Source: a virus | Length of the DNA: 64,000 nt | Direction: 5' to 3' (one strand) | IMG/VR virus record: IMGVR_UViG_3300020190_000032 | Span: 20,316 to 84,315 of that record | In this document: positions 13,518 to 44,513 of the stretch, piece after piece | Layout of the letters: every line of letters starts with the position of its first letter | Numbering within the stretch: the stretch's first letter is position 1 | The notes under the pieces: generated by a model | The model's input: only the letters and a program-made list of their open reading frames with translations | What the model was told of the DNA's origin: nothing | Database searches by the model: none | Translations under genes and position numbers: made by a program

Positions 13518-13578
13518 ACGCCTTAACAATAGGTATCCTACGTCGCACTAAACAAGGAGCAGTGATTGCTCTTTTTAT

Positions 13579-14307
13579 ATGAACGAAGAACTGAATCAGG
13601 CGACCGAGATGGAAGCCACGCAGGTTCCGGAAACAACTGTTGAAGAGACAGGGGTTGAAGAAAAAGAGGATATTCAAAATCTTCTTAAGGCATTAAAATC
13701 CGAAAGAGAAGCTCGTAAGACTTATGAGCGTCAAATTAAAGAGAAGGAAAAACAGTTAGAAAAGTTTAAAGAGTTTAATCCGGAAGAGTATCGCAAACTT
13801 CAGGCCGATGCCGCTCGCGCTGCGGAAATTGAATCGCGTTATGGCGAATCAATCCGTGCCATTGAAGAAAAATACGGCCGCCAAGCGGCAGAAGCAGAGC
13901 AAAGAGCGAAAGAGCTTGAATCAAAGAACCGAGAGTTCATTAAACGGTATGCATTAGAGAAAGTATTTAATTCCGCTGGTGGTAGAACTGATTCCGCTGA
14001 CGGTATTTCTTTCTTTGATATGTTTGCCAGTCAACTGAGCTCTCGTTTTCGGCAGGAACCTGACGGCAGTCTGACGCCACTTGACTCACAGGGGGACCCA
14101 ATCCTTGATACCGAGACAGGTAAGCGTTTGACGCCTGAAGAGTTTGTTGCGCAGTTTAAGTCTCATCCTGTTTATGGTACATTTTTTAAGGGTGTCAAAG
14201 GTTCTGGAGCTGGCTTGAATTATGGTGGCACTGATGCCAATGGTCAACCAATTGAGGATCTTTCGTCTTTATCTCGGGACGAATTATTCTTGAAAGCCTT
14301 TGGCTGA
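13579..14307 (+). CDS. Capsid scaffolding protein
   Basis: Coiled-coil ALKSEREARK, acidic N-terminus, GSGAG near the C-terminus, directly upstream of the capsid gene. Confidence 0.8.
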   Translation: MNEELNQATEMEATQVPETTVEETGVEEKEDIQNLLKALKSEREARKTYERQIKEKEKQLEKFKEFNPEEYRKLQADAARAAEIESRYGESIRAIEEKYGRQAAEAEQRAKELESKNREFIKRYALEKVFNSAGGRTDSADGISFFDMFASQLSSRFRQEPDGSLTPLDSQGDPILDTETGKRLTPEEFVAQFKSHPVYGTFFKGVKGSGAGLNYGGTDANGQPIEDLSSLSRDELFLKAFG

Positions 14308-14312
14308 AGCGG

Positions 14313-14334
14313 AAGCCCCGAAAGGGGCTTTTTT
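14313..14334 (+). terminator. Intrinsic terminator after scaffold
   Basis: AAGCCCC-GAAA-GGGGCTT plus T-tract. Confidence 0.85.
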
Positions 14335-14488
14335 ATTGGGAAGAATAAATATTTTTGGAACTATATGATAGAAAGCACCCGGTTTTGGCTGGCCGAGATG
14401 GTTGGGCAGGCAGGGTGTTCCGATGTTGGGGCGTGAGGCCCTAAGCAACGTTTCACCTTTCCTTGTTCACATCTAAAGGAGTCTTAAA

Positions 14489-15391
14489 ATGGGCCTTAGT
14501 TTATCTGAAGCCAAAAAGCATGCTTCTAATCCCCAGGAGCTTGCCGTTATTTCTGAACTCTCCGCTGGTCCCCTGCTGAGCGTTCTGCCTTTCCGTGAGA
14601 TCCAGGGCAATGGCCTGTTCTGGAAGCGTGAAGAGTCCCTCGGTGACGTGGGTTTCCGTAACTATAATGCTAGCTACGGTGAAGCCTATGCTGAGGTGAG
14701 CCAGCAGTCTGAAAGCCTCCGTCTGTTCGGTGGCGACATCAAGATTGACCGTGCCATCCTGGACCTCGAGGGTTCTGAATCCCGCGCTTATCAGGTGCAG
14801 GCTAAGACCCGCGCAATGCGTCTTTCCTGGGAGTCGCTGTTCATCAACGGCGATTCGGATCAGTCCCCCAGCGAATTTGACGGCCTGGCTACTCGCCTGC
14901 CGGCTAGTGCCTATGCATCTAACAGCCAAGTGATCCGTAACGCAGCTTCCGCTGCTGCCCTGGACCTGAACGCTCTGGACGAAGCTATTGACGCTGTGGA
15001 CGCACAAGGCGGCACCAAGTATCTGGTGATGTCCAAGTCTGCTCGTCGTCACCTGACCAAGCAGGCTCGCACTTCTTCCCAGATTGATATCGCTCGCAAC
15101 GAGTTCGGCTACCAGCAAATGGTGTATGCCGGCCTGCCCGTGATTGAGCTGGATCGCGACCACCAGAATGCTCCCATCCTGGACGGCACCCCCGCTGATC
15201 AGTCGATCTATGTGGTGACCTTCGGCGGCGACCTGCTGACCGGTATCCAGAACGGTGGCATTCAGGTGCGTGACCTGGGTGAGTCCACTGCTTCTCCTCA
15301 GGTGGTGATCCGCGTTGAGTGGTACTGCGGTCTGGCCATGATCAATGGTCGCTCGGCTGCTCGCCTGTGCAACGTGAACGCTACTGCCTGA
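14489..15391 (+). CDS. Major capsid protein (HK97-fold)
   Basis: 300 aa; LLSVLPFREIQGN, FINGD...EFDGL, IRVEWYCGLA; strong SD AAGGAG; strongly C-ending codon bias; flanked by terminators. Confidence 0.9.
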   Translation: MGLSLSEAKKHASNPQELAVISELSAGPLLSVLPFREIQGNGLFWKREESLGDVGFRNYNASYGEAYAEVSQQSESLRLFGGDIKIDRAILDLEGSESRAYQVQAKTRAMRLSWESLFINGDSDQSPSEFDGLATRLPASAYASNSQVIRNAASAAALDLNALDEAIDAVDAQGGTKYLVMSKSARRHLTKQARTSSQIDIARNEFGYQQMVYAGLPVIELDRDHQNAPILDGTPADQSIYVVTFGGDLLTGIQNGGIQVRDLGESTASPQVVIRVEWYCGLAMINGRSAARLCNVNATA

Positions 15392-15419
15392 TCTTGATAG
15401 ACTGGTAAGTGTGGGGAAT

Positions 15420-15443
15420 GAGGGGCTTCGGCCCCTCTTTTTT
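15420..15443 (+). terminator. Intrinsic terminator after major capsid gene
   Basis: GAGGGGC-TTCG-GCCCCTC plus T6. Confidence 0.9.
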
Positions 15444-15523
15444 GCCTTTTAGGAAACATACTTTAGAACCACCAGCGCTTGTTCCTGATCTGCGCGTTGG
15501 TTTTTCCGTCGTTTTTATTAATT

Positions 15524-15874
15524 ATGGCACGTCGTTCTACTGGTATTTTCCCCCGCGAAAAATTTGATCTTGACGCAAATCTGGCTGTTACCACCAGCGA
15601 TGCTAATCTGGGTGTGACCCTGAAGTACATCAAGACCATCCGCGTGATTCTCGTTAATAGCGCAATCACAGGCAACGCTACCGTCACCTTCAACATTGGC
15701 GGCCGCGATGTTGTATTTGGTGCTAATGATCTGGATCTGAATGGTGTTGGTATTGCTCACGTCCGTGGCGCCCTGTGCGACGCTGACAACCTGGTGAAGT
15801 ACACCATTGCTGCTGGCACCGGCACCGCTACTGTTGGCGGCGCTTTCCTCGACGTGGTCGAGAACGTCGGCTGA
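15524..15874 (+). CDS. Putative capsid decoration/minor capsid protein
   Basis: Follows the capsid gene with the same high-expression codon bias; small beta-rich protein; ATG 15524 preferred to TTG 15479. Confidence 0.6.
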   Translation: MARRSTGIFPREKFDLDANLAVTTSDANLGVTLKYIKTIRVILVNSAITGNATVTFNIGGRDVVFGANDLDLNGVGIAHVRGALCDADNLVKYTIAAGTGTATVGGAFLDVVENVG

Positions 15875-15895
15875 TTTTTCCTCAAACGGAATAAT

Positions 15896-15921
15896 AAGGG
15901 TGACTTTTGTCGCCCTTTTTT
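15896..15921 (+). terminator. Intrinsic terminator
   Basis: AAGGGTGAC-TTTT-GTCGCCCTT plus T-tract. Confidence 0.75.
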
Positions 15922-15927
15922 ATTGCC

Positions 15928-16167
15928 ATGCATTTACCCAAACTGCCTACCATCTTTACAAAAGACGGGGAACAACGTAAGGTTTATCACACTGTTGAAG
16001 CCCGTGAATTATCTGCTGCTGGTTGGGTAGAGGTTGCCGCCCAGAAACCTGCTGACGCAGAAGTTACAAAACCATCAGAAGAGAAGGAGACAGTAGAGGA
16101 GAAGCCAAAAGCAGTCAAGCCTAAAACTGTGGCACTCAAAGAGACTGAAATCGAGGAGTTTAAGTGA
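15928..16167 (+). CDS. Hypothetical head-region protein
   Basis: ORF 15907..16167, ATG at 15928; Glu/Lys-rich tail. Confidence 0.55.
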   Translation: MHLPKLPTIFTKDGEQRKVYHTVEARELSAAGWVEVAAQKPADAEVTKPSEEKETVEEKPKAVKPKTVALKETEIEEFK

Positions 16168-16346
16168 ACGAGCCCGAATATTTAACAGGCCCGAGATATA
16201 TTGAAGGCGTTAATTTAGACGCCGATATTATTGCGTCTCAGCCTGTTATTCATAAAAGGCAAGTAACTGATCCCGTGAACGATGGCAGTCTTGGTAAGCC
16301 TGCATACGCTCCGGGATCCACGAACAAAGATGGATCACCTTTTTAG
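16164..16346 (+). CDS. Hypothetical protein
   Basis: GTGA overlap with the previous gene; 60 aa. Confidence 0.5.
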   Translation: MNEPEYLTGPRYIEGVNLDADIIASQPVIHKRQVTDPVNDGSLGKPAYAPGSTNKDGSPF

Positions 16347-16348
16347 TC

Positions 16349-16477
16349 ATGCCATTTAAATCGGCAAAACAAAAAAGATTTTTATATGCTTTTGAGCCAG
16401 AAGTGGCTAAAAAGTTTCAACGTGAAGAAGATAAAGTAAAGGCAAAGCGGAAGACTAAGAAAAAGGGGAAGAAGTAA
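16349..16477 (+). CDS. Small basic protein MPFKSAKQKRFLYAFEPEVAKK (42 aa, not in ORF track)
   Basis: Translated by hand; resembles a widespread small phage protein; TAATG-coupled to the next gene. Confidence 0.65.
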   Translation: MPFKSAKQKRFLYAFEPEVAKKFQREEDKVKAKRKTKKKGKK

Positions 16478-16629
16478 TGGCTTTACCGCTATCTACGGCC
16501 AAGCAAGTATCGCGGAAGAAGTCTTCCTGTAAGGTCATTAGTGAGTATTCGTCTAAAGCTTCACCTAAAAGGACTAAGCCTTTTAATGGTGCTACTGATC
16601 GCTTTCGGCCTGCCAATAGGAAGAAGTAA
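16477..16629 (+). CDS. Small basic protein (50 aa, not in ORF track)
   Basis: TAATG overlaps at both ends; Lys/Arg/Ser-rich. Confidence 0.55.
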   Translation: MALPLSTAKQVSRKKSSCKVISEYSSKASPKRTKPFNGATDRFRPANRKK

Positions 16630-16928
16630 TGGCACAGAAGAAAAGATCTACCGCCGATTTTTACGCAAAAAATCCTGAGGCATATAAAAAGAAACTCGCC
16701 TACGACAAAAAACGTAACTCGAGCCCAGATCGCAAGGAATACCGGGCTGAACTGGCTCGTGAGCGACGTGCTAGAGGGATCATGGGCAAGGGCGGAAAAG
16801 ATGTCAGTCACGCTGCTGGAGGCGGGTTTAAACTTGAGGAACCGAGCAAAAACCGGGCTAGAAACGGACATGGCAACAATGGCAGACTTGCGCCGGGCAA
16901 GGGTAGCAGGAAATCCACCAAGAAGTAA
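16629..16928 (+). CDS. Basic protein with degenerate HNH-like motif
   Basis: GKDVSH...KNRARNG pattern of small phage HNH-like proteins. Confidence 0.6.
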   Translation: MAQKKRSTADFYAKNPEAYKKKLAYDKKRNSSPDRKEYRAELARERRARGIMGKGGKDVSHAAGGGFKLEEPSKNRARNGHGNNGRLAPGKGSRKSTKK

Positions 16929-16962
16929 AGGGGCGGAATACTAGTTCAGCTCTTAAACGGAA

Positions 16963-18492
16963 ATGCCGATTCCGGCCAATCGTGCGAAGATACAGCTTGC
17001 GCGAGGCAATTACAACAATCTACTTGCCAATGTAGGTGAGTTTGCCGAAGGCGAGCTTTCTTATGCAAAAGATGAAAATCTTTTATATATTAAAGAAGAA
17101 GGTCAATTAATCCGCCTCGAGTATGTTACTCGGGCCGATCTTGATCAGGCTGTAGAAGATTCTATTGATCTTGAGGTATATGGTGGCGATGGTCTTTTAA
17201 CCGTTAATGGTGGCGAAGGATCTTCCCCTACCACTACGTTATCTGTTGATGAAGTCTGGTTAAGAGATAAGGTTGGGATTACTGATTCAAAGGAACCTGC
17301 TGGATTTGTCGATAAGACAACGACGGTTATTGCCTATCGCCCTGTTGAGCAGCAATTTTGGCTTTATCCTACGGGAGCATCTGCGGCTGTATGGTGTCAA
17401 GGAGTAAAGCATACTTTTACGACATACAAGTCGGTTGCGGAACCAACGACAAGCGGTATTTATTATATTTATCTTGACAGTAGCGCTAATTTACAAATTA
17501 AATCAACTGAATTTAATTACAAACTAGACACTCCCGTTTGCCAGATTTACTGGAACGAGACGCTGGGTGCTCCACAATTGCTTGTTGATCACAGGCATGG
17601 AATTGCGATGAATTGGGCAACCCAGGAATTCCTGGAGTTAGCCACCAGTGCTGCTGTTAAGACAGGATTTACTATTTCTGGTATTACCAATAATCCAAAT
17701 GGTAATACCGACAGTCATGCAAAGTTTGCACTGACGGGTGGGACGGCACTGTTCCAAGACGTAAAGATTGAAGTTGATCATAGCGCAACACCTGCTCCGA
17801 ATGTTGCGTCAAATTTATTTCAGCAGATATTAAATCCAGTAGCAAAGTTACCTGTTTTTCATCAAGATGGATCGGAATGGAAGTATTCTACGCCTTCTGA
17901 TTATGCGTTTGTTGTTGAAACGGGAGTTCCTGTTTACAATAACTTTAATGTAACTTGGCAGAAACAGCAAGTAGGAAATGGTAAATACTTTATTTCTTAT
18001 ATTGCAGCGACTGGCAATACTGAATATCCCGCTGTAGCATTTTCTGGCCAGCAGCAATATAACGATTTAAGCGCTGCGGAAGCTGCTGTCTTTGGTGATT
18101 TAGATTTAAATGGTCTTGAGGTAATACCGATCAGAATATTATATAAAATTATTTATAAATACAGCACAGCTTATACGAGTACAGTTAAAGTTACAATTGA
18201 AGGATATCAAGACCTTAGATCATCTGGCGTCAACGGAGCAACTGCTGGAGTTACGGATCACGGTAGATTAGGTGGTCTTTTAGACGATGACCACAGCCAA
18301 TATGTTCATGTATCTATTGATAGAGTCATTAGCGCTGATCATAGTCATTCTGGCACAATTGACATTACAAATGAAACTCAAAGTACAAGTGCAGAGACTG
18401 GTGCCTTGCGGATTGCCGGTGGCGTAGGAATATCCGGTAATCTTAATGTTGCCGGTGATATTGGTGCTACTTTAGACGGCGGAAATTTTTGA
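16963..18492 (+). CDS. Fibre/virion protein with Mtd-N-like anchor, ending LDGGNF
   Basis: KIQLARG...EGELSYAKDENLLYI; DHGRLGGLLDDDHSQY; TGALRIAGGVGISGNLNV. Confidence 0.7.
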   Translation: MPIPANRAKIQLARGNYNNLLANVGEFAEGELSYAKDENLLYIKEEGQLIRLEYVTRADLDQAVEDSIDLEVYGGDGLLTVNGGEGSSPTTTLSVDEVWLRDKVGITDSKEPAGFVDKTTTVIAYRPVEQQFWLYPTGASAAVWCQGVKHTFTTYKSVAEPTTSGIYYIYLDSSANLQIKSTEFNYKLDTPVCQIYWNETLGAPQLLVDHRHGIAMNWATQEFLELATSAAVKTGFTISGITNNPNGNTDSHAKFALTGGTALFQDVKIEVDHSATPAPNVASNLFQQILNPVAKLPVFHQDGSEWKYSTPSDYAFVVETGVPVYNNFNVTWQKQQVGNGKYFISYIAATGNTEYPAVAFSGQQQYNDLSAAEAAVFGDLDLNGLEVIPIRILYKIIYKYSTAYTSTVKVTIEGYQDLRSSGVNGATAGVTDHGRLGGLLDDDHSQYVHVSIDRVISADHSHSGTIDITNETQSTSAETGALRIAGGVGISGNLNVAGDIGATLDGGNF

Positions 18493-18529
18493 TAGTAGGA
18501 ATGATATAATGACTGCTTAAGTTTTTAAA

Positions 18530-19681
18530 ATGGCTAGTGCCATCAGGATCAAGCGGAGAGACGCCAGTGGTGCCGCTGGAGCACCCGCAAATCTGCTTCA
18601 TGCCGAGTTGGCATTTAACGAAGCTGATAAAACACTTTATTATGGTTTTGGGTCTGGGGTCGGGAGCAACTCCAGTTCAATTATTTCAATAGCCGGCGAG
18701 GGTGCGTTTTTTTCCAAGAGTATTGTTCAGCAGGCTAATAAAGTTTTAGCAGGCCCTGCAAGTGGTGCAGATGCTGCGCCGACGTTTAGGACGCTTGTTG
18801 CTGATGATATCCCGTCGCTGACAGCATCAAAAATCAGCGATTTTGACACTCAGGTCAGAACAAATCGACTTGATCAGATGGCGGCTCCGACCGCCTCTGT
18901 TGCGTTTAACGCCCAAAAGATCACAGGTCTTGCGGATCCTACTGACGATCAAGATGCTGCAACAAAAGCATACGTTGATGCTGCCCGCAGTGGTCTTGAC
19001 GTAAAAGCAAGTGTCCGTGCTGCTACTATTGGCAATATCACTCTGTCTGGCACGCAGACAATTGACGGCGTTGCATTAGTTGCTGGCAACCGAGTCCTCG
19101 TCAAAAACCAATCTATTGCTGCCGACAACGGCATTTACGTTGTCGCATCGGGTTCTTGGTCTCGTTCCGATGATGCTAACAGTGATGTCGAGGTTACACC
19201 CGGCATGTTTACCTTCGTAGAAGAAGGTACTGCAAATGCTGATTCCGGCTGGGTTCTTACTAATAATGCGACCGTAAATCTTGGTCTTACCGGTCTAGCT
19301 TTTTCCCAGTTCTCCGGTGCTGGACAAATTACTGCTGGTGCCGGTCTTACCAAGACTGGCAATACTATTGATGTCGGCGGTACTACCAACCGAATCACAG
19401 TAAATGCTGATTCGATCGATATTGCTTCGACTTACGTCGGCCAGAGTTCAATTACAACACTTGGCACCGTAACCAGTGGCACATGGAACGGTACTACTAT
19501 TGGTGTTGCCTATGGTGGAACTGGTTTGACTTCCGCAACTAAAGGTTCTGTCCTGGTTGCAAATGCTGCTAATACCTTAAGCGCTTTGGATGGTGGTGGG
19601 GTCAATGATGGATTGCTTTTTTATACCGCAAGTTCAGACACAATCTCCTGGACTAACGAAATCGATGGCGGCACATACTAG
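18530..19681 (+). CDS. Fibre protein (head/tail fibre shaft), ending IDGGTY
   Basis: IRIKRR anchor; DAATKAYVD...VKASVRAAT...NRVLVKNQ conserved phage fibre block. Confidence 0.75.
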   Translation: MASAIRIKRRDASGAAGAPANLLHAELAFNEADKTLYYGFGSGVGSNSSSIISIAGEGAFFSKSIVQQANKVLAGPASGADAAPTFRTLVADDIPSLTASKISDFDTQVRTNRLDQMAAPTASVAFNAQKITGLADPTDDQDAATKAYVDAARSGLDVKASVRAATIGNITLSGTQTIDGVALVAGNRVLVKNQSIAADNGIYVVASGSWSRSDDANSDVEVTPGMFTFVEEGTANADSGWVLTNNATVNLGLTGLAFSQFSGAGQITAGAGLTKTGNTIDVGGTTNRITVNADSIDIASTYVGQSSITTLGTVTSGTWNGTTIGVAYGGTGLTSATKGSVLVANAANTLSALDGGGVNDGLLFYTASSDTISWTNEIDGGTY

Positions 19682-19747
19682 GTAGGAACCCTAGGACGCC
19701 ATTAGATAATGGCTCTATAGGGCTTTATAGCCGCCGGAGAATGCCAC

Positions 19748-20653
19748 ATGGCAGCGCCAGTTGTTAAGCTAAAGCGGTCTAGCGTACCAGGAAAAATACC
19801 GCTTACTACGGACATTGATCTGGGCGAAATTGCCATAAATACGTTTGATGGTAAAGCATATTTTAAAAAGGATAACGGCACTGAGTCTATCGTTGAGATT
19901 GGTACTGGTGCCGGTGGTGGCGGTGGAGGCAGTTACACCGCTCCTGCAATTTTAACTTTATATAATAAGAATAATTCTGGAGGTCCGGCAACATTTGACG
20001 GAACAGAAACAAGATTTCAGTTAAGGGATTCTCCCGGAAATATTGTTACCGTCAGCAGTGCTCTTCTGGCTGCAATTAGTGTAGATGGTGTTATCCAAAA
20101 ACCGAATAGTGGTATTCCTGTTGGTAGCTTTGAGGGATTTTATGTTACCACAAACGCAACATTAGGATATGATATTGTTTTTGGCTCTGCTCCTTCTAGC
20201 ACCTCTACATTTTTCGGTGTTTTAAGTGGTACGTTTGCTGCAACAAGCGGAACGACCGGGATAACAAAGCTTGATAGCCTTACCAGTCAATTCAACGGTA
20301 CTGCAACATCATTCACTTTAAAAGTAAACAATGTTGCGTATGCACCAGAATATGCAAATGCAGTCTTAATTATTGTTGGTGGCGTTGTTCAGATTCCAAC
20401 TTCTGCTTACACAATATCTGGTTCAACGATTGCGTTTACGTCAGCTCCACCAACTGGAACCAGTTTCTATGGAATCGATTTCAAAATAGGTGATAGTGGT
20501 GGCAGTGCATCACTGATCACAGAAAATAAAATTGTAATCGATCAGAATGTAACAATTGGAGTTGGGTATAATGGGTTAAGCGCTGGCCCGATTGAGGTTG
20601 CGGCAACCTATAGCGTTGAAGTTCCCTCCGGTGGCACCTGGGTGATTCTCTGA
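19748..20653 (+). CDS. Fibre/baseplate-type structural protein
   Basis: VKLKRSSVPGKIP..GEIAINTFDGK anchor; two F[DN]G..F.L..V.GV.Q.P..F..AP repeats. Confidence 0.7.
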   Translation: MAAPVVKLKRSSVPGKIPLTTDIDLGEIAINTFDGKAYFKKDNGTESIVEIGTGAGGGGGGSYTAPAILTLYNKNNSGGPATFDGTETRFQLRDSPGNIVTVSSALLAAISVDGVIQKPNSGIPVGSFEGFYVTTNATLGYDIVFGSAPSSTSTFFGVLSGTFAATSGTTGITKLDSLTSQFNGTATSFTLKVNNVAYAPEYANAVLIIVGGVVQIPTSAYTISGSTIAFTSAPPTGTSFYGIDFKIGDSGGSASLITENKIVIDQNVTIGVGYNGLSAGPIEVAATYSVEVPSGGTWVIL

Positions 20654-21315
20654 TGACTTACGGATCTGTCAAAATTGATTCTATTGTTACGAGCACTCAG
20701 ACCGTAACGGTAGACACCCTGAAGAGCGTTATAGACGCGGCTTTAGCTAAGTCCGGTGGGACGATGACTGGGGCGATTGTATTTGCCGCCGGACAGACTA
20801 CGCCTGCAGTTGCTGCAATTACAAGTGGCTCGATTAGTGGGATCAATGATCTTGCTATTGCCGATGGCGGAACTGGAGCTAGTTCCGCTTCTGCCGCAAG
20901 AACAAATTTAGGCTTGGTGATCAACACTGATGTTCAAGCATATGATGCTGATACAGCTAAAACAGATATTGTTCAGACGTTTACGGCTGGGCAACGCGGC
21001 GAAGTAACAACTGTGACGAGTTCTGCCGGTGCTTTGGCGATTAATTTTGATGACAGTAATAATTTTATTTGCACATTAAGTCAAAATATTACTTCCGTGA
21101 CATTTACGAATGCTACGGCCGGTCAGTCTGGTTCTATTTTTATCAAGCAGCCGGCGTCAGGTGGTCCTTACACGGTTGGCGGTTGGGGCAGTGGGTTTAA
21201 GTTTTCTGCCGGTACGGCGCCAACAATTACAGCTACAAGTTCGAAAACAGATAGAATTGATTATGTGGTGATTGGTGCATCCGAAGTGCAAGTTGTTTGG
21301 ACGGGTAACTACTGA
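20653..21315 (+). CDS. Tail fibre distal subunit
   Basis: LAKSGGTMTG, IADGGTGASSASAARTNLGL; C-terminal GQSGSIFIKQ..W adaptor domain. Confidence 0.7.
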   Translation: MTYGSVKIDSIVTSTQTVTVDTLKSVIDAALAKSGGTMTGAIVFAAGQTTPAVAAITSGSISGINDLAIADGGTGASSASAARTNLGLVINTDVQAYDADTAKTDIVQTFTAGQRGEVTTVTSSAGALAINFDDSNNFICTLSQNITSVTFTNATAGQSGSIFIKQPASGGPYTVGGWGSGFKFSAGTAPTITATSSKTDRIDYVVIGASEVQVVWTGNY

Positions 21316-24098: not shown

Positions 24099-24151
24099 CG
24101 TAAATACATTAAACTTTTACTTGGCACCCTAAATCGACTACCATTTCAATC

Positions 24152-24703: not shown

Positions 24704-24741
24704 ACCAATGGAAGCCTATGCCTGTAGACTCACCAGGGTCC

Positions 24742-30473: not shown

Positions 30474-30752
30474 ATGGGAAAACGGGGAAGACCAAAAAGG
30501 GAAAAACCGCTGACGGACGAGGAACTGGCACAAAGGAGAGCCCGTTACAACTCAACCCGGAAGCAAGCCCGTAGGCTGGCCTCACAGCAGCTCAAGGAGG
30601 AGCGACGGGAGTGGGAGGAAGTCGGCTGGATTGTCAGAAAAATGAATCGGGAAGCTGGGTTGAGTCAGGAAAGAATTTGGGAGCTGCTTGGTGGACTGGT
30701 AATTCGAAAGAAAATAAAAAAATGGTGCTCTGATGACTTCTCACCTCGTTAG
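30474..30752 (+). CDS. Putative HTH DNA-binding protein
   Basis: KRGRPK N-terminus; GLSQERIWELLGG HTH-like; divergent from the initiator gene. Confidence 0.5.
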   Translation: MGKRGRPKREKPLTDEELAQRRARYNSTRKQARRLASQQLKEERREWEEVGWIVRKMNREAGLSQERIWELLGGLVIRKKIKKWCSDDFSPR

Positions 30753-32789: not shown

Positions 32790-32906
32790 CTGAGGAATTC
32801 TGTAAAATTCCTTTGAAGAACTGGTAAACCACATGGTGGGAGCAGCGATTGCTGTTCTCACCATTTTTATTCCATTATCAGTTGTCTTGTTAGACAGCAA
32901 AGGGCC

Positions 32907-34379: not shown

Positions 34380-34396
34380 TCAGAGTTATCAAATTT

Positions 34397-35924: not shown

Positions 35925-35926
35925 AA

Positions 35927-36115: not shown

Positions 36116-36135
36116 CGGGATTCATAAATTAACTA

Positions 36136-36723: not shown

Positions 36724-36728
36724 AACAA

Positions 36729-36899: not shown

Positions 36900-38409
36900 A
36901 CTCGGCAGGGATTACTTACAAAAATCAGCAAGATCTCAGGGGATGCTTAAAGCCCTGAGAGAAAAGAAGCTGCAATTAAAAGAGAAAGGGGAACGAATAC
37001 TTCTTCATAAATTCATCAAAGAAGTTTATCCAAATTACAAGTTCTATAAATTTCACGCCGTATTAATTAAACAACTTCAACGGATTATTGACGGAGAATG
37101 CACAAGGCTAATTTTGCAGGTTCCGCCAAGAACGGGGAAAAGTCTTCTCAGTTCTCAGTTACTTCCTGCTGCATACCTGTTGGCGCATCCAGATCGGTTT
37201 GTAGGTATATCTTCTTATTCGGCAGAACTTAGTCAAGGATTCTCCCGCAAGGCTAGGGACTTCTTTAAAGAAGCTGGAGGGCAGCTAGACCCCACCTCTC
37301 AGGCCGTGAATGCCTGGGGGACCCAGGGCGGTGGTGGTTTATGGGCGGCAGGTGTTGGGGGTGCCATTACGGGCCGTTCTGGCCACCTCCTCATTATTGA
37401 TGACCCCGTTAAAAACAGGGAAGAAGCCGAAAGTCCTCGTTTGATGGAAAAGCTTTGGGACTGGTATGCATCAACCCTGTATACACGTTTGGAGCCTGAG
37501 GTTGGATCTATTGTTGTCATTCAGACTAGATGGTCTGAAACAGACATGATTGGACAACTTATTGAAAACGAGCTTAATGTAAGCGAACGAGGTAGAGAGA
37601 ATTGGACTATTGTTGATTTACCTGCATTGTTTGAGGATGAAGGAAGTCGTCCACCCTTACCTGGGCATTGTGAAGTAGTGCCCGATTGGCGAGAAGAAGA
37701 AGGTCAGGCATTATGTCCTCAAAGGTATGACGAGGAAGATTACGAAAGGATTAGGGAAGCAATTGGAGCGCGAGAATTTGCCTCGCTTTATCAACAAAGA
37801 CCCGCCCCGGTTGGCGGTAACATGTTCAATCCTGATTGGTGGCAATATTATGAACATGATACAATTATGCCGGATTTTAGCAGAATAATGCTTTCTGTTG
37901 ACTGTACCTTTACGGACGCAAATACGAGTGACTTTGTTGTCGGCGCTGTTATTGGCCAAGCGGGTAATTCATTTTATGTTTTAGATTTATTTAGGGAAAA
38001 AACTGACGTTATTGGCACTATGTCAATGATTTCAAGAATGTACAAACGACACGTCCTTGACGGAACAGTTATTGAACTTGCTGCAAGTGGTTATGCTGTT
38101 TATCAAATGGCCAAAAAGAAAATTCCAGGATTGATTGGATTCAAGCCAGAAAAGAGCAAAGAGGCTAGGGCTGCTGGCATTGTTCCTGTGGTTGAAGCTG
38201 GAAATGTCTATTTGCCCGCTAGCGCTCCTTGGCTTGATGCCTTTATATCAGAATTTAGTTTGTTCCCAGCGGCAAAAAATGACGACCAGGTTGACGCTGT
38301 GACAATGGCGATCAACTATTGCCTTCAAAGAACCGCACCTCAGTTGACTCAGGTTACTTGGGGTAGGGGCACAAGATATATTGATGAAGGCAGTATCTAT
38401 AACTCATAG
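36889..38409 (+). CDS. terL: Terminase large subunit
   Basis: VPPRTGKS Walker A, LLIIDDP Walker B, IQTRW, YQQRP, SVD, NDDQVDA nuclease. Confidence 0.95.
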   Translation: MANKLGRDYLQKSARSQGMLKALREKKLQLKEKGERILLHKFIKEVYPNYKFYKFHAVLIKQLQRIIDGECTRLILQVPPRTGKSLLSSQLLPAAYLLAHPDRFVGISSYSAELSQGFSRKARDFFKEAGGQLDPTSQAVNAWGTQGGGGLWAAGVGGAITGRSGHLLIIDDPVKNREEAESPRLMEKLWDWYASTLYTRLEPEVGSIVVIQTRWSETDMIGQLIENELNVSERGRENWTIVDLPALFEDEGSRPPLPGHCEVVPDWREEEGQALCPQRYDEEDYERIREAIGAREFASLYQQRPAPVGGNMFNPDWWQYYEHDTIMPDFSRIMLSVDCTFTDANTSDFVVGAVIGQAGNSFYVLDLFREKTDVIGTMSMISRMYKRHVLDGTVIELAASGYAVYQMAKKKIPGLIGFKPEKSKEARAAGIVPVVEAGNVYLPASAPWLDAFISEFSLFPAAKNDDQVDAVTMAINYCLQRTAPQLTQVTWGRGTRYIDEGSIYNS

Positions 38410-38437
38410 TGATACACTGGTATAAATAGTTATTTAA

Positions 38438-39064
38438 ATGGCACGCAAAGCCAGGCAGTTTCAATTATCAAAAGAGCAACAAAAGTTAGCCTCTGATAAT
38501 ATCAACTTAGCTCGCCGTGAAGCTTGGCGGCTACAAAGAACAACTGACATCGATTACGATACCCTTGAGGGCGCTGCGCTGGAAGGATTATGCAAGGCGG
38601 CGTACAGATATGATCCTTCTTCTGGTTATAAGTTCAGCAGCTTAGCGGTCCCCACAATTAGAGGAGAACTTCTTCACTGGATTAGAGATAAAACATATTC
38701 AATGCGTTTGACGCACAAGATGCGTGAGACATGGATCAGAGGCAGAAAGTTATTATATAAAGGATTCTTGGATGACGAGATTGCAAAGGCTCTGGAAATA
38801 ACCTCTGAAGAATGGCAGGAAATTAAAGGCGTTTGCTCCGGCCCGCCACTTGAGTTGAACGATCAAGCCAATCCAACAGAGTCACTTGAGCCAGAGGAAA
38901 TTAATTTTGCAGAAAGGTTTCAGGTATTAACCAAAATGGGATGGAGTCAAATGACGGAGCAGGAGCAGCAAATGATTTCAAATTATTTCAACAACCCTTC
39001 GACTCGCATACCGTACAATCAGGTAAAGGCTTTTACTGAAAACTCAATTCGATTTGATGTCTAA
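38438..39064 (+). CDS. SigF/SigB-like sigma factor lacking a recognisable region 4.2
   Basis: NINLAR, EGLCKAAYRYDPSSGYKFSSLAVPTIRGELLHWIRDK, EIAKALEIT. Confidence 0.85.
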   Translation: MARKARQFQLSKEQQKLASDNINLARREAWRLQRTTDIDYDTLEGAALEGLCKAAYRYDPSSGYKFSSLAVPTIRGELLHWIRDKTYSMRLTHKMRETWIRGRKLLYKGFLDDEIAKALEITSEEWQEIKGVCSGPPLELNDQANPTESLEPEEINFAERFQVLTKMGWSQMTEQEQQMISNYFNNPSTRIPYNQVKAFTENSIRFDV

Positions 39065-39109
39065 AATCTTTATTTAGTCTCACTTTGAGACGTTGCAGTC
39101 CGCGATGAC

Positions 39110-40717
39110 GTGGATACACTGCAAATATTAAAAGGACTCGGTTTGGCGCTTTCAGAGGAAACGATAGAAAAGATTAAGAGCCTGACGGTTTCTGCCGTTC
39201 TTGAAAAAGAAGGTGTATTTCTTAAAAGAGTAGGAAGAGAATTCGTTACACATTGTATTTGGCATAAAGATAAAAATCCATCTCTTACGATCTCAGACGA
39301 AAAAGGTTTCACTTTTTGTCACGTCTGCAGAGAGGGTGGTGATGTAATCAGTTTCATTAAGAAGAAGTATGGCTTAAATTTCAGGGAGGCTTGTGAAAGG
39401 ATTGCAGCATCAAATAATATACAGGTTATCTACAAGGACGAAGATCCCGGTGTAGCAATTGAGAAAAAGAAAAAAATCGATGCCGCATTGCATGAAGCTC
39501 ATCAAAAACACGAGTATTTTAGGTCGACATTAAAGCAGAGTGAAACTGCTATTAATTTTATTAAACAGCGTGGTATTTTACCTGAAACTTCTAGGCAGTT
39601 CAGTCTCGGTTATGACCCAAAAGAAAATCGACTTGTAATACCTATTAAAGATTACATGGGTAGAGTTGTTGGCTTTAGCAGAAGAGCAATCGGAGATGAT
39701 AGGCCAAAATATAAAAACACTGAAAATAATCTCATTTTCAATAAGTCAGAAATTGTTTTCAACGAATATGATGCAATGGAGTCGATGCGCTCCGAAGGGC
39801 AATGTATTTTCGTAGAAGGTCATATTGATGTCATTTCGATGTGGCAAGCTGGCATTAAAAATGTTGTTGCTTTGCAGGGTACTGCTTCTCCATCTGACAA
39901 TGTTATACAGCGAATGATGCGCAGAACAAATAGTTTTGTTCTTTGCATGGATGCTGATGAGGGCGGTGAAAAAGCTATAGGAATATTTTTAAACGCAGTT
40001 AAGTCTTTGACGTTATCTGGAAAGCTTGACGTAAAAATAGCTTCAATATCCGGCGGCAAGGACCCAGATGAAGCAATAAAAAATGGTTTTAATATTCAGG
40101 ATGCTATTGACAATGCTATTCCATGGCTTGATTGGATTCTTGATAAATGGCTTTTAAATTTAGACTTTACTAATACATCAAAAATTCAAGAAGTTGAAAG
40201 TAAAGTCAAAGAACTTATTTCAAATATAACCAGTTCGGCTTTACGGGCTCATTATTTTGACAAGGCGGCAATTCGGCTTGCTCAGAACAAACAAAATGTC
40301 GCGGCGGAAATACTTAAAAATCTTCAGTCAGATACCTCTTGCACACCGGGACAAAGGGTTTGGAGAAGGCCGGATAAATATTGGACTCGCTCCATTGTGG
40401 AAAAAAGATTACTTCGTCTTTATATCCATCAGCCATCTTTGCGGTTTATGCTTGGATCATTAATGGATAACTTGATTAATCCGGATATGATCTGGCTTTG
40501 GAGTAGGATAAAAGAGCTTGAAGGGCAGTCTTTGGTTGACTGCACTCCTTATAGCGTTATGGCTATACTTGCAGTTGCTGAGCCTAGGTACTTACAAAAG
40601 TTAAGGCCACTTGCAAGGCCAACTGTGAAAGTTGACGATTCTGATCAAGTCTTGATTCATATTGAAGACGTAATGACAAAGTCGATTACTGAAGAAATCG
40701 AAGGCACACTATCCTGA
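39110..40717 (+). CDS. dnaG: DnaG-type DNA primase
   Basis: CIWH..PSL..CHVC zinc finger; PKYKN; VEGHIDV; DADEGG TOPRIM; KDPDE. Confidence 0.93.
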   Translation: MDTLQILKGLGLALSEETIEKIKSLTVSAVLEKEGVFLKRVGREFVTHCIWHKDKNPSLTISDEKGFTFCHVCREGGDVISFIKKKYGLNFREACERIAASNNIQVIYKDEDPGVAIEKKKKIDAALHEAHQKHEYFRSTLKQSETAINFIKQRGILPETSRQFSLGYDPKENRLVIPIKDYMGRVVGFSRRAIGDDRPKYKNTENNLIFNKSEIVFNEYDAMESMRSEGQCIFVEGHIDVISMWQAGIKNVVALQGTASPSDNVIQRMMRRTNSFVLCMDADEGGEKAIGIFLNAVKSLTLSGKLDVKIASISGGKDPDEAIKNGFNIQDAIDNAIPWLDWILDKWLLNLDFTNTSKIQEVESKVKELISNITSSALRAHYFDKAAIRLAQNKQNVAAEILKNLQSDTSCTPGQRVWRRPDKYWTRSIVEKRLLRLYIHQPSLRFMLGSLMDNLINPDMIWLWSRIKELEGQSLVDCTPYSVMAILAVAEPRYLQKLRPLARPTVKVDDSDQVLIHIEDVMTKSITEEIEGTLS

Positions 40718-40734
40718 CGGTAACACCATGAACA

Positions 40735-40962
40735 ATGGGGCTGTACTTTCTTTATCTGACGCTCATCTGTTTAGCCATTTTTTATCCTGTCGATGCGGCC
40801 ATTGCTGCTGAGACCATCTGGTTGAAGGTGAAAATCTTTTTTCTGGATGCCGTTTTGCTTATTCAGTCCTACATTATTTACCGTAAACTGAAAGCGGATT
40901 TTGAGAGGATGCAAATTCCTGTTCCTCCTTTCCGCTTTACCTCAATACAGGAACGACACTAA
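40735..40962 (+). CDS. Small membrane protein
   Basis: Two hydrophobic segments. Confidence 0.5.
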   Translation: MGLYFLYLTLICLAIFYPVDAAIAAETIWLKVKIFFLDAVLLIQSYIIYRKLKADFERMQIPVPPFRFTSIQERH

Positions 40963-41114
40963 TGTCCAAGAAGACTGCCACCGTATTTGAATCTGCGCCT
41001 CCTAAGCGAACAAGAATTGGTGACGGCCGAAGGGTCAGAACCCGTCTGGCACAAGGTCGTACAAAGCGCAGTCCTAAGCGTAAATTCTACAGAGGACAAG
41101 GTAAGGGTTGAGTC

Positions 41115-41429
41115 ATGATTAGTAACGAGGGGCAGTACATCAAGAAAGTCTGTGACGAAGTTCATCTTCTGCTTTTAGAAGATCGAATTGCTGAGGCTGC
41201 CTCTCTGTTGTTTGAAATTAACAAAGAAGACAGCAGCTTTTGGTATAAAGCTAAAATTGCTTTATACAAATCTGCTGTAGGGCATCGCGAGCTATTCGTG
41301 ATAGCAAGCCTCATTGGCGTGGCAGAAAAGGACGAACTTGACCAGTCCTACCATTTAGTGCCAGGTCTATTTGCACTTCGCAAACAAAATCATGATCACT
41401 CAAAAGGATTCATCCCACCAAAAGGATGA
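41115..41429 (+). CDS. Hypothetical protein
   Basis: 104 aa ORF. Confidence 0.45.
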   Translation: MISNEGQYIKKVCDEVHLLLLEDRIAEAASLLFEINKEDSSFWYKAKIALYKSAVGHRELFVIASLIGVAEKDELDQSYHLVPGLFALRKQNHDHSKGFIPPKG

Positions 41430-41526
41430 GCCAGTTAAGGATTTAGACCAAGAACGTGCTGACTTTTGGCAGAAAAAGTGCCTTGAAGAGCCAGCTTGCA
41501 TTGGTTGCAAAATTTATGATTTATAA
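41392..41526 (+). CDS. 44-aa CP12-like peptide (C-terminal domain only; not in ORF track)
   Basis: Ends DFWQKKCLEEPACIGCKIYDL = C-x3-P-x4-C-x-I-Y-D. Confidence 0.55.
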   Translation: MITQKDSSHQKDEPVKDLDQERADFWQKKCLEEPACIGCKIYDL

Positions 41527-41576
41527 GGAAATTTGTAGCCAACGCCGGTAGACTGTATCTACCGATCATCACACGG

Positions 41577-43919
41577 ATGGCAGAATTTTCCAAGGCCGCT
41601 CCCAGTGCAGAGGCAGTTTTCTATCGCACTTACAGCCGCCGCAAGGCTGATGGGACAAGGGAGAATTTCAAGGAGGCTATGACCCGTTGTGTTAACTCAA
41701 TTGCAATAATCGGTCAGTTTACAAATGAAGAAAAGCATCTCGTTATCAAGCAAGCTCTAAAGCAGGCATGCTTCCCGTCTGGCAGAGCTTTTTGGGTCGC
41801 CGGTACGGAATGGGCTAAAAAGAAACAAAACTATAGTGGTTGGTACAATTGTACTAGTACTAGGGTTGTAGACCTAGAGGCCTTTGAGCTAATCATGGAG
41901 CTTGCCATGATGGGCTCAGGCACTGGAGCGATGCTTGAGACGCATGTTATTGATGCATTGCCTTCGGTTGAAAATTTTATTGATATTGTACTAACGACAG
42001 AAGTTGGCGGCATTGAACCTGCGCAGAGGCAGGATGAAACTTTTGTTGTTACTCCGGAAGAGAGTGGCGAGAATGAGTATGTATTGGTCGTTGGCGATAG
42101 CCGCCAAGGCTGGGTAAAAGCTTATCGGGCGATCCTCGATCTTGCTTGCAATCCTACTGGTAATGACGTTCAATTAATCATTGATCTTGGAAATATTCGT
42201 TCTGCAGGCGAAAAGTTAAAAGGTTTTGGTGGAACTGCCAATCCAATCAAGCTGCGAGAGATGTTCGAAAGGGTTGCAAAAATCCTTAACAAAGCAGTTG
42301 GTCGCAAGTTGACTGCCATCGAATGCTGCCTTATCATTGACGAGGCTGCAGCCTGCGTTGTTGCCGGCAACATTCGTCGCAGCGCAGGAATGAGACAATT
42401 CTCTTGGGATGATACCCAAGCAGTTAACTCCAAATCCGGTCTTTATTCCCAAGATGAAAACGGCAACTGGCGGGTCGACTCCGAAAAAGAAGCCCTTCGG
42501 ATGGCTAATCATACTTCCTGCTATCACTTTAAGCCTTCAAAAGATGAAGTAGAAGAGTCAATTCGCCAGCAGTTCTACAGCGGTGAAGGAGCTATTCAGT
42601 ATGTCCCGCAGGCTCTTTTGAGAGCCAATGCTGACTTGCTTGATACGGAAGAATCAAAACAGCGCTTCCTAAGGGAGTATGCAAAGGGGCGTGAATTTGC
42701 AGAATCATTCTTAGTTTTATACGGCTACGAGAAGGGAATCAAATTGCAAAAGAGAGAGGCTGAGCATCGGATTAGCCGGTACGGCCTTAATCCTTGCGGT
42801 GAAATCATTGGCAGCGACTTCCACTGCAATCTTTCTGAAGTACATTTGAATACAATTGATCCTAACGATCGTCAGGCTCAAATTGATGCTTTCAAGGCTG
42901 GGGCTTTACAAGTTGCTGCCTTACTGCACCATGAATTTAAAGATGAGCGCTATCAATACAGCCGTGAGATTGACCCCATTGTTGGCGTAAGTTTTACCGG
43001 TCTGTTTGATTTCTTTGTTCAAGCCTTTGGAGCCGAATGGCTTAGCTGGATGATGAAGGGTCGTCCTAATAATAACGCTGGCAGAAAGTATCAAGATTTA
43101 GAAATGAAATACTTGGCGCTTTGGCGTTCTATTGTTAGGGAAACGATTTCCGAATACTGCATTAAACACGGACTGCGCGTACCCAACCGTACAACAACCG
43201 TACAACCTGCTGGCACGAAAAGTTTGCTTACAGGTGCTTCTTCTGGATGGCATCCTCCCAAAGCTCAACGTTTCATCCGTCGTATTACTTTTGGCAAGAC
43301 CGACCCGTTGGTGTCAGCTTTGAGAGATTGGGGTTACAATGTTATCCCTGCTCAGTCAGCAAAAGATGAAAATGGCAATCTTTTGGATGACATCCTTGAC
43401 GATCGCGTTCAGGAAGTTTTGGTTGAAATTCCCACAGAGGTATCCTGGGCTAATCTTGAGGGATGTGATCAGTTTGAATTAAGCCAATTGCCTGCAGAAT
43501 CTCAATGGGGTCTGTATATGCAGGTTCAAAAGTATTACACTGAACACAATACAAGCGCCACCATTGAATATAGAGAAAACGAAATCCCAGTTCTGACTGA
43601 GTTAATTCACGACTCAATCAAGAATGATACTGGCTACATCTCTGCCGCCTTGCTAGCTCGGTTTGACGAAAATGAAACCTTCCCTCGTTTGCCGTTTGAG
43701 CCAATTGATAAGACGACCCTTGATAGACTGAATGGTATATCGGAGTCGTATCGATCTGTTTTGCCAGTCATTCTAGGCAAGGACGAGGTCAGTTTCCTTG
43801 ATGTTCTGAATCAGTACGACAAGCCTGATTACGAACTGAAAGGGGCCGCTGGTTGCGATAGCGACAAGTGCCTTTCTGAAGCGGAGAAGGATGGCGATCA
43901 GGTCGGTCAATCGATTTGA
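41577..43919 (+). CDS. nrdJ: Class II (adenosylcobalamin) ribonucleotide reductase
   Basis: FYRTYSR, YNCTS, GNIRRSA, GLNPCGEI, TTVQPAGTKSLL, C-terminal GCDSDKC. Confidence 0.95.
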   Translation: MAEFSKAAPSAEAVFYRTYSRRKADGTRENFKEAMTRCVNSIAIIGQFTNEEKHLVIKQALKQACFPSGRAFWVAGTEWAKKKQNYSGWYNCTSTRVVDLEAFELIMELAMMGSGTGAMLETHVIDALPSVENFIDIVLTTEVGGIEPAQRQDETFVVTPEESGENEYVLVVGDSRQGWVKAYRAILDLACNPTGNDVQLIIDLGNIRSAGEKLKGFGGTANPIKLREMFERVAKILNKAVGRKLTAIECCLIIDEAAACVVAGNIRRSAGMRQFSWDDTQAVNSKSGLYSQDENGNWRVDSEKEALRMANHTSCYHFKPSKDEVEESIRQQFYSGEGAIQYVPQALLRANADLLDTEESKQRFLREYAKGREFAESFLVLYGYEKGIKLQKREAEHRISRYGLNPCGEIIGSDFHCNLSEVHLNTIDPNDRQAQIDAFKAGALQVAALLHHEFKDERYQYSREIDPIVGVSFTGLFDFFVQAFGAEWLSWMMKGRPNNNAGRKYQDLEMKYLALWRSIVRETISEYCIKHGLRVPNRTTTVQPAGTKSLLTGASSGWHPPKAQRFIRRITFGKTDPLVSALRDWGYNVIPAQSAKDENGNLLDDILDDRVQEVLVEIPTEVSWANLEGCDQFELSQLPAESQWGLYMQVQKYYTEHNTSATIEYRENEIPVLTELIHDSIKNDTGYISAALLARFDENETFPRLPFEPIDKTTLDRLNGISESYRSVLPVILGKDEVSFLDVLNQYDKPDYELKGAAGCDSDKCLSEAEKDGDQVGQSI

Positions 43920-43921
43920 TC

Positions 43922-44440
43922 ATGAGCACACTCGTAGACCATCAGATCAGAGATCTTTGCCGTAAATCTGGCCTCGTCGAACCTCTCGATGTTGACTTTA
44001 TCAATCCGGCGAGCATGGACGTTACTCTTGGTTCCGTAATACGGGTCGAGGGGCGAGTGTGCGGTCCCGCAAATGAAAGAGTGAGATGGCGCGAGGTTGA
44101 CATTACTAATGGCTACACACTGTCACCCGGTAATTTCATCCTCGCCCACACCGAAGAATGCGTTCGGATCCCTAATTGGGTTGAATGCCAATTTCAGTTG
44201 AAGAGTAGCAGGGCTAGGGAAGGCCTTGAACATCTTCTGGCTGGATACATCGACCCTGGATTTACGGGTCAAATCACCCTAGAGCTTTTAAATGTTAACC
44301 AACGTCACAATATTGAATTGTGGCCAGGAATGAGGATTGGACAGTTACGTTTTAACTCTTTAGACGTAGCCCCACTGAGATCTTATGCTGTCACGGGAAG
44401 GTACATGAATGACAAAGGTCCTGTCCCCAGCAAAGGTTGA
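43922..44440 (+). CDS. dcd: dCTP deaminase
   Basis: INPASMDVTLG, KSSRAREG, AGYIDPGFTGQITLEL, GMRIGQ. Confidence 0.92.
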   Translation: MSTLVDHQIRDLCRKSGLVEPLDVDFINPASMDVTLGSVIRVEGRVCGPANERVRWREVDITNGYTLSPGNFILAHTEECVRIPNWVECQFQLKSSRAREGLEHLLAGYIDPGFTGQITLELLNVNQRHNIELWPGMRIGQLRFNSLDVAPLRSYAVTGRYMNDKGPVPSKG

Positions 44441-44453
44441 AGGTAGACTAATA

Positions 44454-44513
44454 GGAGTCGTGTGATACGACAAATAATATTCTGCCGTGAAGGCATCACT
44501 CCGCTGAGATAGC
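44454..44513 (+). promoter_or_regulatory. Structured 5' leader of portal with three G[AT]GAN-loop hairpins
   Basis: GTCGT-GTGAT-ACGAC; TGCC-GTGAA-GGCA; GCT-GAGAT-AGC. Confidence 0.6.

Follow-up and report, generated by a model that had tools for sequence, protein, structure and literature searches.

The 64,000-nucleotide (nt) stretch analysed here (the window; bases 20316-84315 of the 84,315-bp IMG/VR virus record IMGVR_UViG_3300020190_000032, which CheckV estimates to be complete) carries seven small hairpins in and around the leaders of the genes for three procapsid proteins, the portal, the scaffold and the major capsid protein. Their stems differ, and their loops share the five-base form G-N-G-A-N. 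Comparison with related genomes shows that this element is real, that it is conserved far beyond chance and that it is confined in this genome to the portal, scaffold and capsid genes. An earlier note, made from the letters of the window only, had described the seven hairpins, restricted them to these three genes and suggested that one RNA-binding protein couples the translation of dispersed head genes. All seven were found where it had placed them and with the sequences it gave (Table 1; S1 and S2 at the scaffold gene, M1 and M2 before the capsid gene, P1 to P3 before the portal gene), and the restriction to the three genes holds in this genome. Its interpretation is partly supported: a shared and specific RNA tag on the procapsid genes stands, and these genes are very probably subject to a common post-transcriptional control. 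It is plausible that one protein reads the tag and that the outcome is control of stoichiometry.

What decides the matter is comparison among relatives. With the capsid protein as query, IMG/VR yielded 196 relatives, of which the best 80 (69-94% identical) were used together with their scaffold genes, and a search with the portal protein gave 52 relatives in 51 loci (58-84% identical). After merging of duplicates, the capsid alignment held 54 distinct sequences (53 and the window; L040, cut at its 5' end, was left out), the scaffold alignment 53 sequences, with identical ones merged, and the portal alignment 40. Loci with truncated or miscalled open reading frames (ORFs) were omitted from the scaffold set (L006, L023, L047, L059, L070, L074 and L078), as was L025, whose S1 is apparently cut by a deletion; the portal set leaves out L088 and L111, both too short, and L120, cut at its 5' end. 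In L025, at 1555-1600, the 3' half of S1 and the ATG are missing, through a deletion or an assembly error. Pairing was compared with controls in which the 3' partner was slid by 1-3 columns and with shuffles (n = 500); the shuffles ignore relatedness, and the slid controls, which allow for it, agree with them.

Compensatory changes were found in all seven stems, so the hairpins of the earlier note do covary among homologues. The three capsid helices were paired in 88.7% of cells versus 30-50% after sliding, the two scaffold hairpins in 92.7% versus 41-51%, and the three portal hairpins in 84.8% versus 26-45%. Double-change cells numbered 142 in the capsid alignment (48.5 ± 9.6 when shuffled), 150 in the scaffold alignment (52.0 ± 6.3) and 70 in the portal alignment (33.0 ± 3.9), and in each case the observed value was reached by 0 of the 500 shuffles. 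Compensatory changes affected 10 of 10 pairs in the two capsid apical stems and 10 of 11 pairs in the portal hairpins.

The same picture is given by the single hairpins. S1 keeps a GNGAN loop in 53 of 53 sequences, with 99.1% of its helix paired and both-side changes in four of five pairs; for S2, these values are 51 of 53, 88.4% and six of six pairs. The M1 loop is GNGAN in 51 of 54 rows, and the other three rows were shifted by MAFFT, their actual sequence being GTGAT; the M1 apical helix is 94% paired, with both-side changes in four of four pairs, and its ACCC/GGGU core, paired in 53-54 of 54 sequences, is nearly invariant and hence without covariation. M2 has the loop in all 54 sequences, a helix 86.9% paired and both-side changes in six of six pairs. 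Among the portal hairpins, the loop is kept in 37 of 40 sequences at P1 (helix 82.5% paired, both-side changes in three of four pairs), in 33 of 40 at P2 (84.5%, four of four pairs) and in 29 of 40 at P3 (88.9%), where seven rows are gaps and the loop-closing pair is UA in 15 sequences and AU in 14. The outer GGAG/CTCC stem that the earlier note had drawn around P1 and P2 is present in this sequence, but among the relatives it was paired in 56.2% of cells versus 57.3% when shuffled and did not hold up as a shared feature.

Moreover, every capsid leader listed follows a shared plan, in which the promoter motif is followed by ACCC, a hairpin with a GNGAY loop, AGGGUG, a hairpin with a GNGAN loop, (C/U)ACC and a pyrimidine tract. 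Within 14374-14457, the ACCC, AGGGUG and (C/U)ACC blocks are invariant or nearly so in the 54 sequences. GGGUG could pair on either side. Its pairing with the downstream CACC, which RNAfold prefers for this leader, was not adopted, since relatives with UACC or UUCC would probably keep no more than two to three pairs.

The earlier note had assigned the hairpins to one loop class, G[AT]GAN, on unrelated stems. That a single loop class sits on stems of unrelated, covarying sequence was confirmed, but the class is wider and must be written G-N-G-A-N because C and G also occur at position 2. This position is U, A, C or G (G in 3 of 53 S1 loops) and is uncoordinated between hairpins within a genome: in 44 loci, U and A occur in every combination. 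Position 5 is mostly U or C, with A in 17 of 40 P2 loops and in 1 of 54 M1 loops. Fixed G1, G3 and A4, with N2 free and N5 nearly so, on stems of any sequence are the mark of recognition by shape plus a few bases, and a G-N-G-A-N loop may fold as a GNRA tetraloop does, with an additional base on its 3' side. Since N2 varies freely, the loop is not a pairing site for RNA, which excludes pairing of a GUGAU loop with the 16S 3' end or with another RNA.

The hairpins act as RNA, not as DNA, as shown by their strand specificity and their wealth of G-U pairs. Across 420 kb of capsid loci, hairpins of at least 5 bp numbered 239 on the sense strand versus 21 on the other; of the 239, the three bins surrounding the scaffold start took 94 and the bin of the capsid leader 97, and the portal loci showed a peak of 48 hairpins within 100 nt before the start. 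G-U pairs are frequent in the stems (in M1: GU 20, GU 19 and UG 17) and would be C-A mismatches on the other strand. Selection on the RNA is also indicated at S2, within the scaffold coding sequence (CDS). There the flanking residues vary (ASEME, ALETS, APETG, VSEMD, TSETE and others) and the stem is kept, and the loop codons are constant, GAG-AUG or GAG-ACN (Glu-Met or Glu-Thr); the codons for Met and Thr share only A and then a pyrimidine. It should be noted that S1 was rejected as an intrinsic terminator: UUUUUAU follows it in the window, and other sequences stand there in relatives.

Table 1. Features of the procapsid gene leaders and neighbouring sequence, in window coordinates
Feature	Position	Strand	Details
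Late motif, scaffold	13532-13540	+	GGTATCCTA; 47 nt before ATG; conserved, scaffold alignment columns 46-54
Hairpin S1	13554-13574	+	AAGGAGCA-GTGAT-TGCTCTTT; 8-bp stem; ends 4 nt before scaffold ATG (13579)
Scaffold protein gene, 242 amino acids (aa)	13579-14307	+	phrog_206, E 1.7e-28
Hairpin S2	13599-13617	+	GGCGACC-GAGAT-GGAAGCC; within scaffold CDS, codons 7-13; loop is Glu and first two bases of Met
Intrinsic terminator after scaffold gene	14314-14335	+	AGCCCC-GAAA-GGGGCT and T run; in most relatives listed
Late motif, capsid	14357-14365	+	GGAACTATA; 132 nt before ATG
Composite hairpin M1	14374-14419	+	basal helix AGCACCC/GGGTGTT, internal loops, apical stem
M1 apical stem	14389-14405	+	CTGGCC-GAGAT-GGTTGG; loop 14395-14399
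Hairpin M2	14426-14444	+	TTGGGGC-GTGAG-GCCCTAA; 7-bp stem
Conserved pyrimidine tract after M2	14451-14466	+	UUUCACCUUUCCUUGU; A107, C108 and C109 of capsid alignment invariant or nearly so
Major capsid protein gene, 300 aa	14489-15391	+	phrog_212, E 2.1e-70; AAGGAG at 14476-14481
Late motif, portal	44442-44450	+	GGTAGACTA; 73 nt before ATG; directly after dCTP deaminase stop
Hairpin P1	44457-44471	+	GTCGT-GTGAT-ACGAC
Hairpin P2	44483-44495	+	TGCC-GTGAA-GGCA
Hairpin P3	44503-44513	+	GCT-GAGAT-AGC; 3-bp stem; ends 1 nt before portal ATG (44515)
Portal protein gene, 530 aa	44515-46107	+	phrog_145, E 1.5e-89
Further scan matches	16997-17009, 32841-32853		found by the hairpin scan

Counts within the genome alone give weak to moderate support. 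On the + strand of the window, 23 G[AT]GAN hairpins with stems of at least 3 bp were found, and six of them lie in the 267 nt of leaders, where 0.07 were expected (Poisson 1.7e-10, in a post-hoc test); the seventh hairpin, S2, is outside this count, its stem being interrupted. The scan against shuffled sequence proposed in the earlier note gave a divided answer. Hairpins with a G-N-G-A-N loop and at least 4 bp occurred at the level of dinucleotide shuffles (30 vs 31.0 ± 4.7), and an excess appeared at 6 bp or more (12 vs 4.8 ± 2.2). The excess was confined to non-coding DNA, where 8 of 182 loop words had such a stem versus 60 of 10,905 other positions (p = 1.4e-5), and no excess was seen in coding DNA (4 of 978 vs 291 of 72,245). 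Two other hairpins of the window were considered and rejected as members: that at 15894-15910 is part of a terminator (GGGTGAC-TTTT-GTCGCCC and a T run), and that at 46347-46363 (loop GGGAA), in the gene for a 133-aa protein, is not conserved across 46 distinct homologues.

Each of the three genes stands behind its own copy of a late promoter motif with the pattern GGNANN[CA]TA, for which 29 motif-to-start pairs were listed. Their leaders are long, as the earlier note had pointed out: 47 nt for the scaffold, 132 nt for the capsid and 73 nt for the portal gene, against 27-32 nt in 14 of the 29 pairs. The late genes at this usual distance have no GNGAN hairpin, and the tail genes behind the same motif likewise lack it. 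Given that the motif-to-start distance is 27-32 nt, most late messages would have leaders of about a dozen bases; the sites of these 14 late genes lie within 1472-56253 (e.g., 5192, 11480, 16935, 24123 and 25104). The first hairpin in each of the three procapsid leaders begins 7-14 nt past the promoter motif and is therefore probably 5'-terminal in the transcript. No Shine-Dalgarno sequence stands at a working distance from the portal or scaffold start, whereas the capsid gene has a normal AAGGAG. The portal gene lies directly 3' of the genes for ribonucleotide reductase and dCTP deaminase. The late motif resembles the -10 element of group-3 sigma factors of the sporulation type. Two sigma factors are encoded by the phage, one of them of 208 aa at 38438-39064.

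The capsid protein shares 66-69% identity with its counterparts in the Synechococcus siphoviruses S-CBS2 and S-CRES1-3, 50.5% with that of the Prochlorococcus phage P-SS2 and about 35% with those of phiCbK-like Caulobacter phages. Near-identical DNA occurs in 20 metagenome runs, all from lakes or freshwater. From these identities and freshwater matches it follows that the phage belongs to the cyanosiphoviruses of the S-CBS2/P-SS2 group, as a freshwater member. Among isolates, S-CBS2 (loci L078 and L102), P-SS2, S-CRES1 and S-CRES3 carry the hairpins, as do four of four P-SS2-like contigs (all four loci from a search with the P-SS2 capsid protein), and the element occurs in the head-gene messages of well over a hundred relatives. 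No such hairpins were found in the scaffold and capsid leaders of phiCbK and the Microcystis phage Mwe-JY26, with capsid proteins about 35% identical. A small and sharply defined RNA signal is carried here by exactly three genes 30 kb apart, from the Prochlorococcus phage P-SS2 to freshwater relatives.

The small terminase gene (terS; phrog_6299) has the usual 30-nt leader here and no GNGAN hairpin. Among 12 distinct relatives, two (L140 and L145) have a hairpin, GATTCA-GTGAT-TGGATC, just before the small terminase start (about 20 nt before the start of the match); the window and nine other distinct relatives are without it, and terS membership varies within the clade. In the S-CBS2 record NC_015463.1 (L135/L136), the scaffold gene carries the name 'host specific protein J' and the portal CDS is annotated 72 nt too early, taking in the leader hairpins, both likely slips of annotation; an endonuclease gene of the HNH type is inserted between its scaffold and capsid genes. 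With a portal leader annotated as coding and a scaffold gene misnamed in S-CBS2, the hairpin element offers a ready aid to annotation, and it is a candidate for Rfam.

On balance, we lean towards the reading that the seven hairpins are operators for one trans-acting reader that controls translation or stability. They would be copies of one cis-acting RNA signal, a short stem of free sequence capped by G-N-G-A-N, present in two or three copies per message at the 5' end or around the start codon, each mRNA being made from its own copy of the late promoter. A single reader binding the loops would place the dispersed procapsid genes under common post-transcriptional control, and the grouping of the sites, whose loops are spaced 19-44 nt apart within a set, makes a dimeric or multimeric reader probable. 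At the portal gene, with P3 next to the AUG, and at the scaffold gene, whose AUG sits between S1 and S2 (S2 begins 20 nt downstream of it), binding would occlude or expose the ribosome site. The capsid hairpins M1 and M2 lie 45-115 nt upstream of the start codon, and for this reason their effect would be an indirect one on mRNA stability or folding, or else the abundant capsid mRNA would titrate the reader.

A narrower form of this proposal, which we consider tentative and rather unlikely, is a translational regulon that senses assembly. Unassembled scaffold protein, or the 133-aa protein, would bind the hairpins and set the portal:scaffold:capsid ratio, with the capsid leader as a sink: the accumulating leader of the capsid mRNA would draw off the reader and so release the translation of portal and scaffold. 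If true, head assembly would for the first time have a feedback loop whose RNA operator is defined, and a marine and freshwater cyanophage clade would share it. To our knowledge, little has been established on how tailed phages keep portal synthesis (about a dozen copies) in balance with that of the scaffold and of the capsid protein (hundreds), and the element makes this matching of head-protein output directly testable.

Several observations weigh against the operator reading. The capsid hairpins lie too far upstream of the AUG to block the ribosome site directly. Copy needs differ, about 12 for the portal and hundreds for the capsid protein, and it is not obvious how regulation of a single sign would fit both. 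The invariant ACCC...AGGGUG...CACC of the capsid leader is left unexplained by a model of operator hairpins, and one divergent genome (the contig of L062/L126) keeps the scaffold and capsid hairpins with a short, ordinary portal leader. The 20 runs listed for the phage are all DNA, with no RNA run among them. Moreover, the reader is putative, with the scaffold protein and the 133-aa Cys-rich protein as candidates. A search of the phage for CsrA, S21, RRM_1, CSD, S1 and L7Ae domains gave no match, with every control positive, and 20 small, basic or conserved unknown phage proteins, ten small or basic ORFs among them, gave no Pfam match above the cut-off. A search for an ANTAR domain also gave no match in the phage, yet its control matched nowhere either, so that this result is uninformative.

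The two candidate readers belong to the core shared with S-CBS2 and P-SS2, as given by a tblastn search of all ORFs against these genomes. The scaffold family and the 133-aa protein each occur in 8 of 50,697 phage records, exactly those of the hairpin-bearing isolates (S-CBS2, S-CRES1-3 and P-SS2); by contrast, the capsid protein has matches in 264 phage records. This co-distribution with the hairpins hints weakly at a role as reader, because the five phages form one clade. The 133-aa protein is encoded at 46332-46733, two genes after the portal gene, and is found in every portal locus that covers the region, with 20 invariant positions in 26 sequences. It gave nothing in Pfam, nothing in a profile search of the PDB (best E 0.52) and nothing usable in the ESM Atlas (model with a predicted local distance difference test score, pLDDT, of 0.34). 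Another protein, of 92 aa (ORF 30474-30752), has an arginine-rich N-terminus and is encoded by the first gene of a rightward early unit; it had no tblastn match at E 1e-4 in S-CBS2 or P-SS2, a search that short, fast-evolving proteins can escape.

Because the first hairpins are probably 5'-terminal, the main rival of an operator is a stabiliser, or more generally an element with no dedicated reader, which we judge unlikely. The hairpins would then protect the messages from ribonucleases that depend on the 5' end, or would be folding or ribosome-recruiting modules for starts that lack a Shine-Dalgarno sequence, and their GNRA-like loops would be stable caps or docking loops for an RNA or ribosomal receptor. 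Such a role agrees with the position of the first hairpin at the very 5' end of the transcript, with the portal and scaffold starts, with the failure of the phage to match any of the RNA-binding domains searched, and with the conserved pyrimidine tract after M2 and P2 (a (C)ACC resembling the tract after M2 also stands 3' of P2 in the portal leaders of relatives). Stability alone, however, needs neither the conservation of G1, G3 and A4 (29-54 of 40-54 sequences per hairpin) nor a loop of exactly five bases nor two to three copies, the abundant late messages for tail genes manage without hairpins behind the same promoter, and the inside of a CDS, where S2 lies, is an unexpected place for a stabiliser. 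That the hairpins are products of chance, or DNA palindromes serving as operators of a DNA-binding protein, would suit the genome-wide count of hairpins of at least 4 bp, which is at the shuffle expectation, but this is already refuted by the comparative data: all seven stems covary, and a symmetric DNA site is incompatible with the G-U pairs and with the bias to one strand.

Two other rivals place the action at transcription or at RNA cleavage. The earlier note had likened the loops to those read by lambda N. In boxB of the lambda and P22 nut sites, a pentaloop G-N-N-N-A with a sheared G-A pair between positions 1 and 5 is read by the arginine-rich motif of N. As in boxB, the stem here is short and little constrained, the loop has five bases and is GNRA-like, the copies are multiple and promoter-proximal, and reading would be by shape plus a few bases. 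The analogy is nevertheless loose: every GNGAN loop here has its A at position 4, against position 5 in boxB, the sites belong to late head genes and lie near or inside the start regions, and the tblastn comparison with S-CBS2 and P-SS2 found no conserved N-like protein. We hold it improbable that the hairpins are boxB/nut-like or put-like sites for processive antitermination or other control of transcription, where RNA polymerase would pick up a factor from the nascent hairpins just past the late promoter. Besides the boxB-like, promoter-proximal loop, this reading could appeal to the terminator between the scaffold and capsid genes, to the two phage sigma factors and to the small arginine-rich ORF at 30474-30752. 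On the other side, the capsid gene has its own promoter past that terminator, which makes read-through unnecessary, the arginine-rich ORF is without a match in two phages that bear the hairpins, and hairpins that abut or flank the AUG, one of them in the CDS, favour the ribosome over the polymerase. Quite improbable, too, is a role in RNA cleavage, in which a site-specific endoribonuclease would recognise the hairpins and trim the head-gene messages to defined, stable 5' ends or inactivate them. Conserved loops on variable stems at the borders of messages would fit such an enzyme, as would read-through transcripts that may reach the portal leader from the nucleotide-metabolism genes directly 5' of it; yet each gene has its own promoter 7-14 nt upstream of the first hairpin, and the analysis turned up no candidate nuclease.

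By analogy, an operator of the kind favoured here would work like the known phage hairpin operators (boxB and the MS2 type), but it fails the defining features of each. The coat operators of the RNA phages MS2, PP7 and Qbeta are a single hairpin that takes in the start codon and has a bulged purine; its fixed loop, of four to six bases, differs in sequence from the loop here. Like these, the element joins capsid-related genes with a small hairpin near the start codon, whose loop bases would be read by a protein. Unlike these single operators of single-stranded RNA phages, it occurs in a double-stranded DNA phage with two to three hairpins on each of three messages, it has GNGAN loops and no conserved bulge in S1, P1, P2, P3 or M2, and the start codons lie outside the hairpins. 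The leaders controlled by CsrA/RsmA contain several hairpins with GGA loops, one of them at the ribosome site, bridged by the protein dimer. They resemble the present leaders in having multiple hairpins with conserved loops tens of nt apart, one at the start, in a regulon of dispersed genes, and differ in that the loop motif here is not GGA; CsrA (PF02599) had 0 matches in the phage, with a control that matched in 3 of 14 genomes. The ANTAR target RNAs, two tandem hairpins with six-base loops read by an ANTAR domain, were ruled out since the loops here have five bases.

For head genes in particular, the scaffolding protein gene of phage P22 is said to be autoregulated post-transcriptionally, in work attributed to Wyckoff and Casjens in 1985, and we know of no RNA operator defined for it. 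It is one classical hint on the balance of head proteins and is not known to have been tied to an RNA element. As there, the output of a head-assembly gene would be set after transcription, presumably in step with assembly; unlike there, three genes are concerned instead of one, and the RNA element is defined here from sequence alone.

No family of Rfam 15 matches the hairpins, as the check named in the earlier note showed. The whole window gave only four tRNAs at the gathering score, and regions 13500-14500 and 44400-44560, searched at E up to 10, gave at best 11.5-16.9 bits versus gathering scores of 34-80. A description of the element was not found in the searchable part of the literature. 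For P-SS2, the genome paper gives predicted sigma-70 promoters and terminators and mentions a group-3 sigma factor, and in its accessible text neither 'hairpin' nor 'motif' occurs (PMC2784084). From what is accessible of a 2023 study of more than 10,000 candidate structured viral RNAs, which mentions candidates upstream of a T7-type capsid gene, the element may be listed without a name in its supplements (PMC10690425).

Two further structures of the window and its relatives were recorded. A structured leader of 91 nt (47848-47938) lies behind a late motif and before a gene at 47939 that matches phrog_7930 ('lipoprotein precursor'). It contains an 8-bp hairpin with a GGGAT loop (47899-47919) that was not counted as a member: the loop is GGGGT or GAGGT in two of three close relatives, and covariation was not found. 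This leader is nearly invariant in the three close relatives, farther relatives have a hairpin CCC-GAGA-GGG instead, and it may be a separate RNA element. Finally, a hairpin about 1285 nt after the capsid start, on Cys-Asp codons, occurs in 14 close relatives and is a candidate only.

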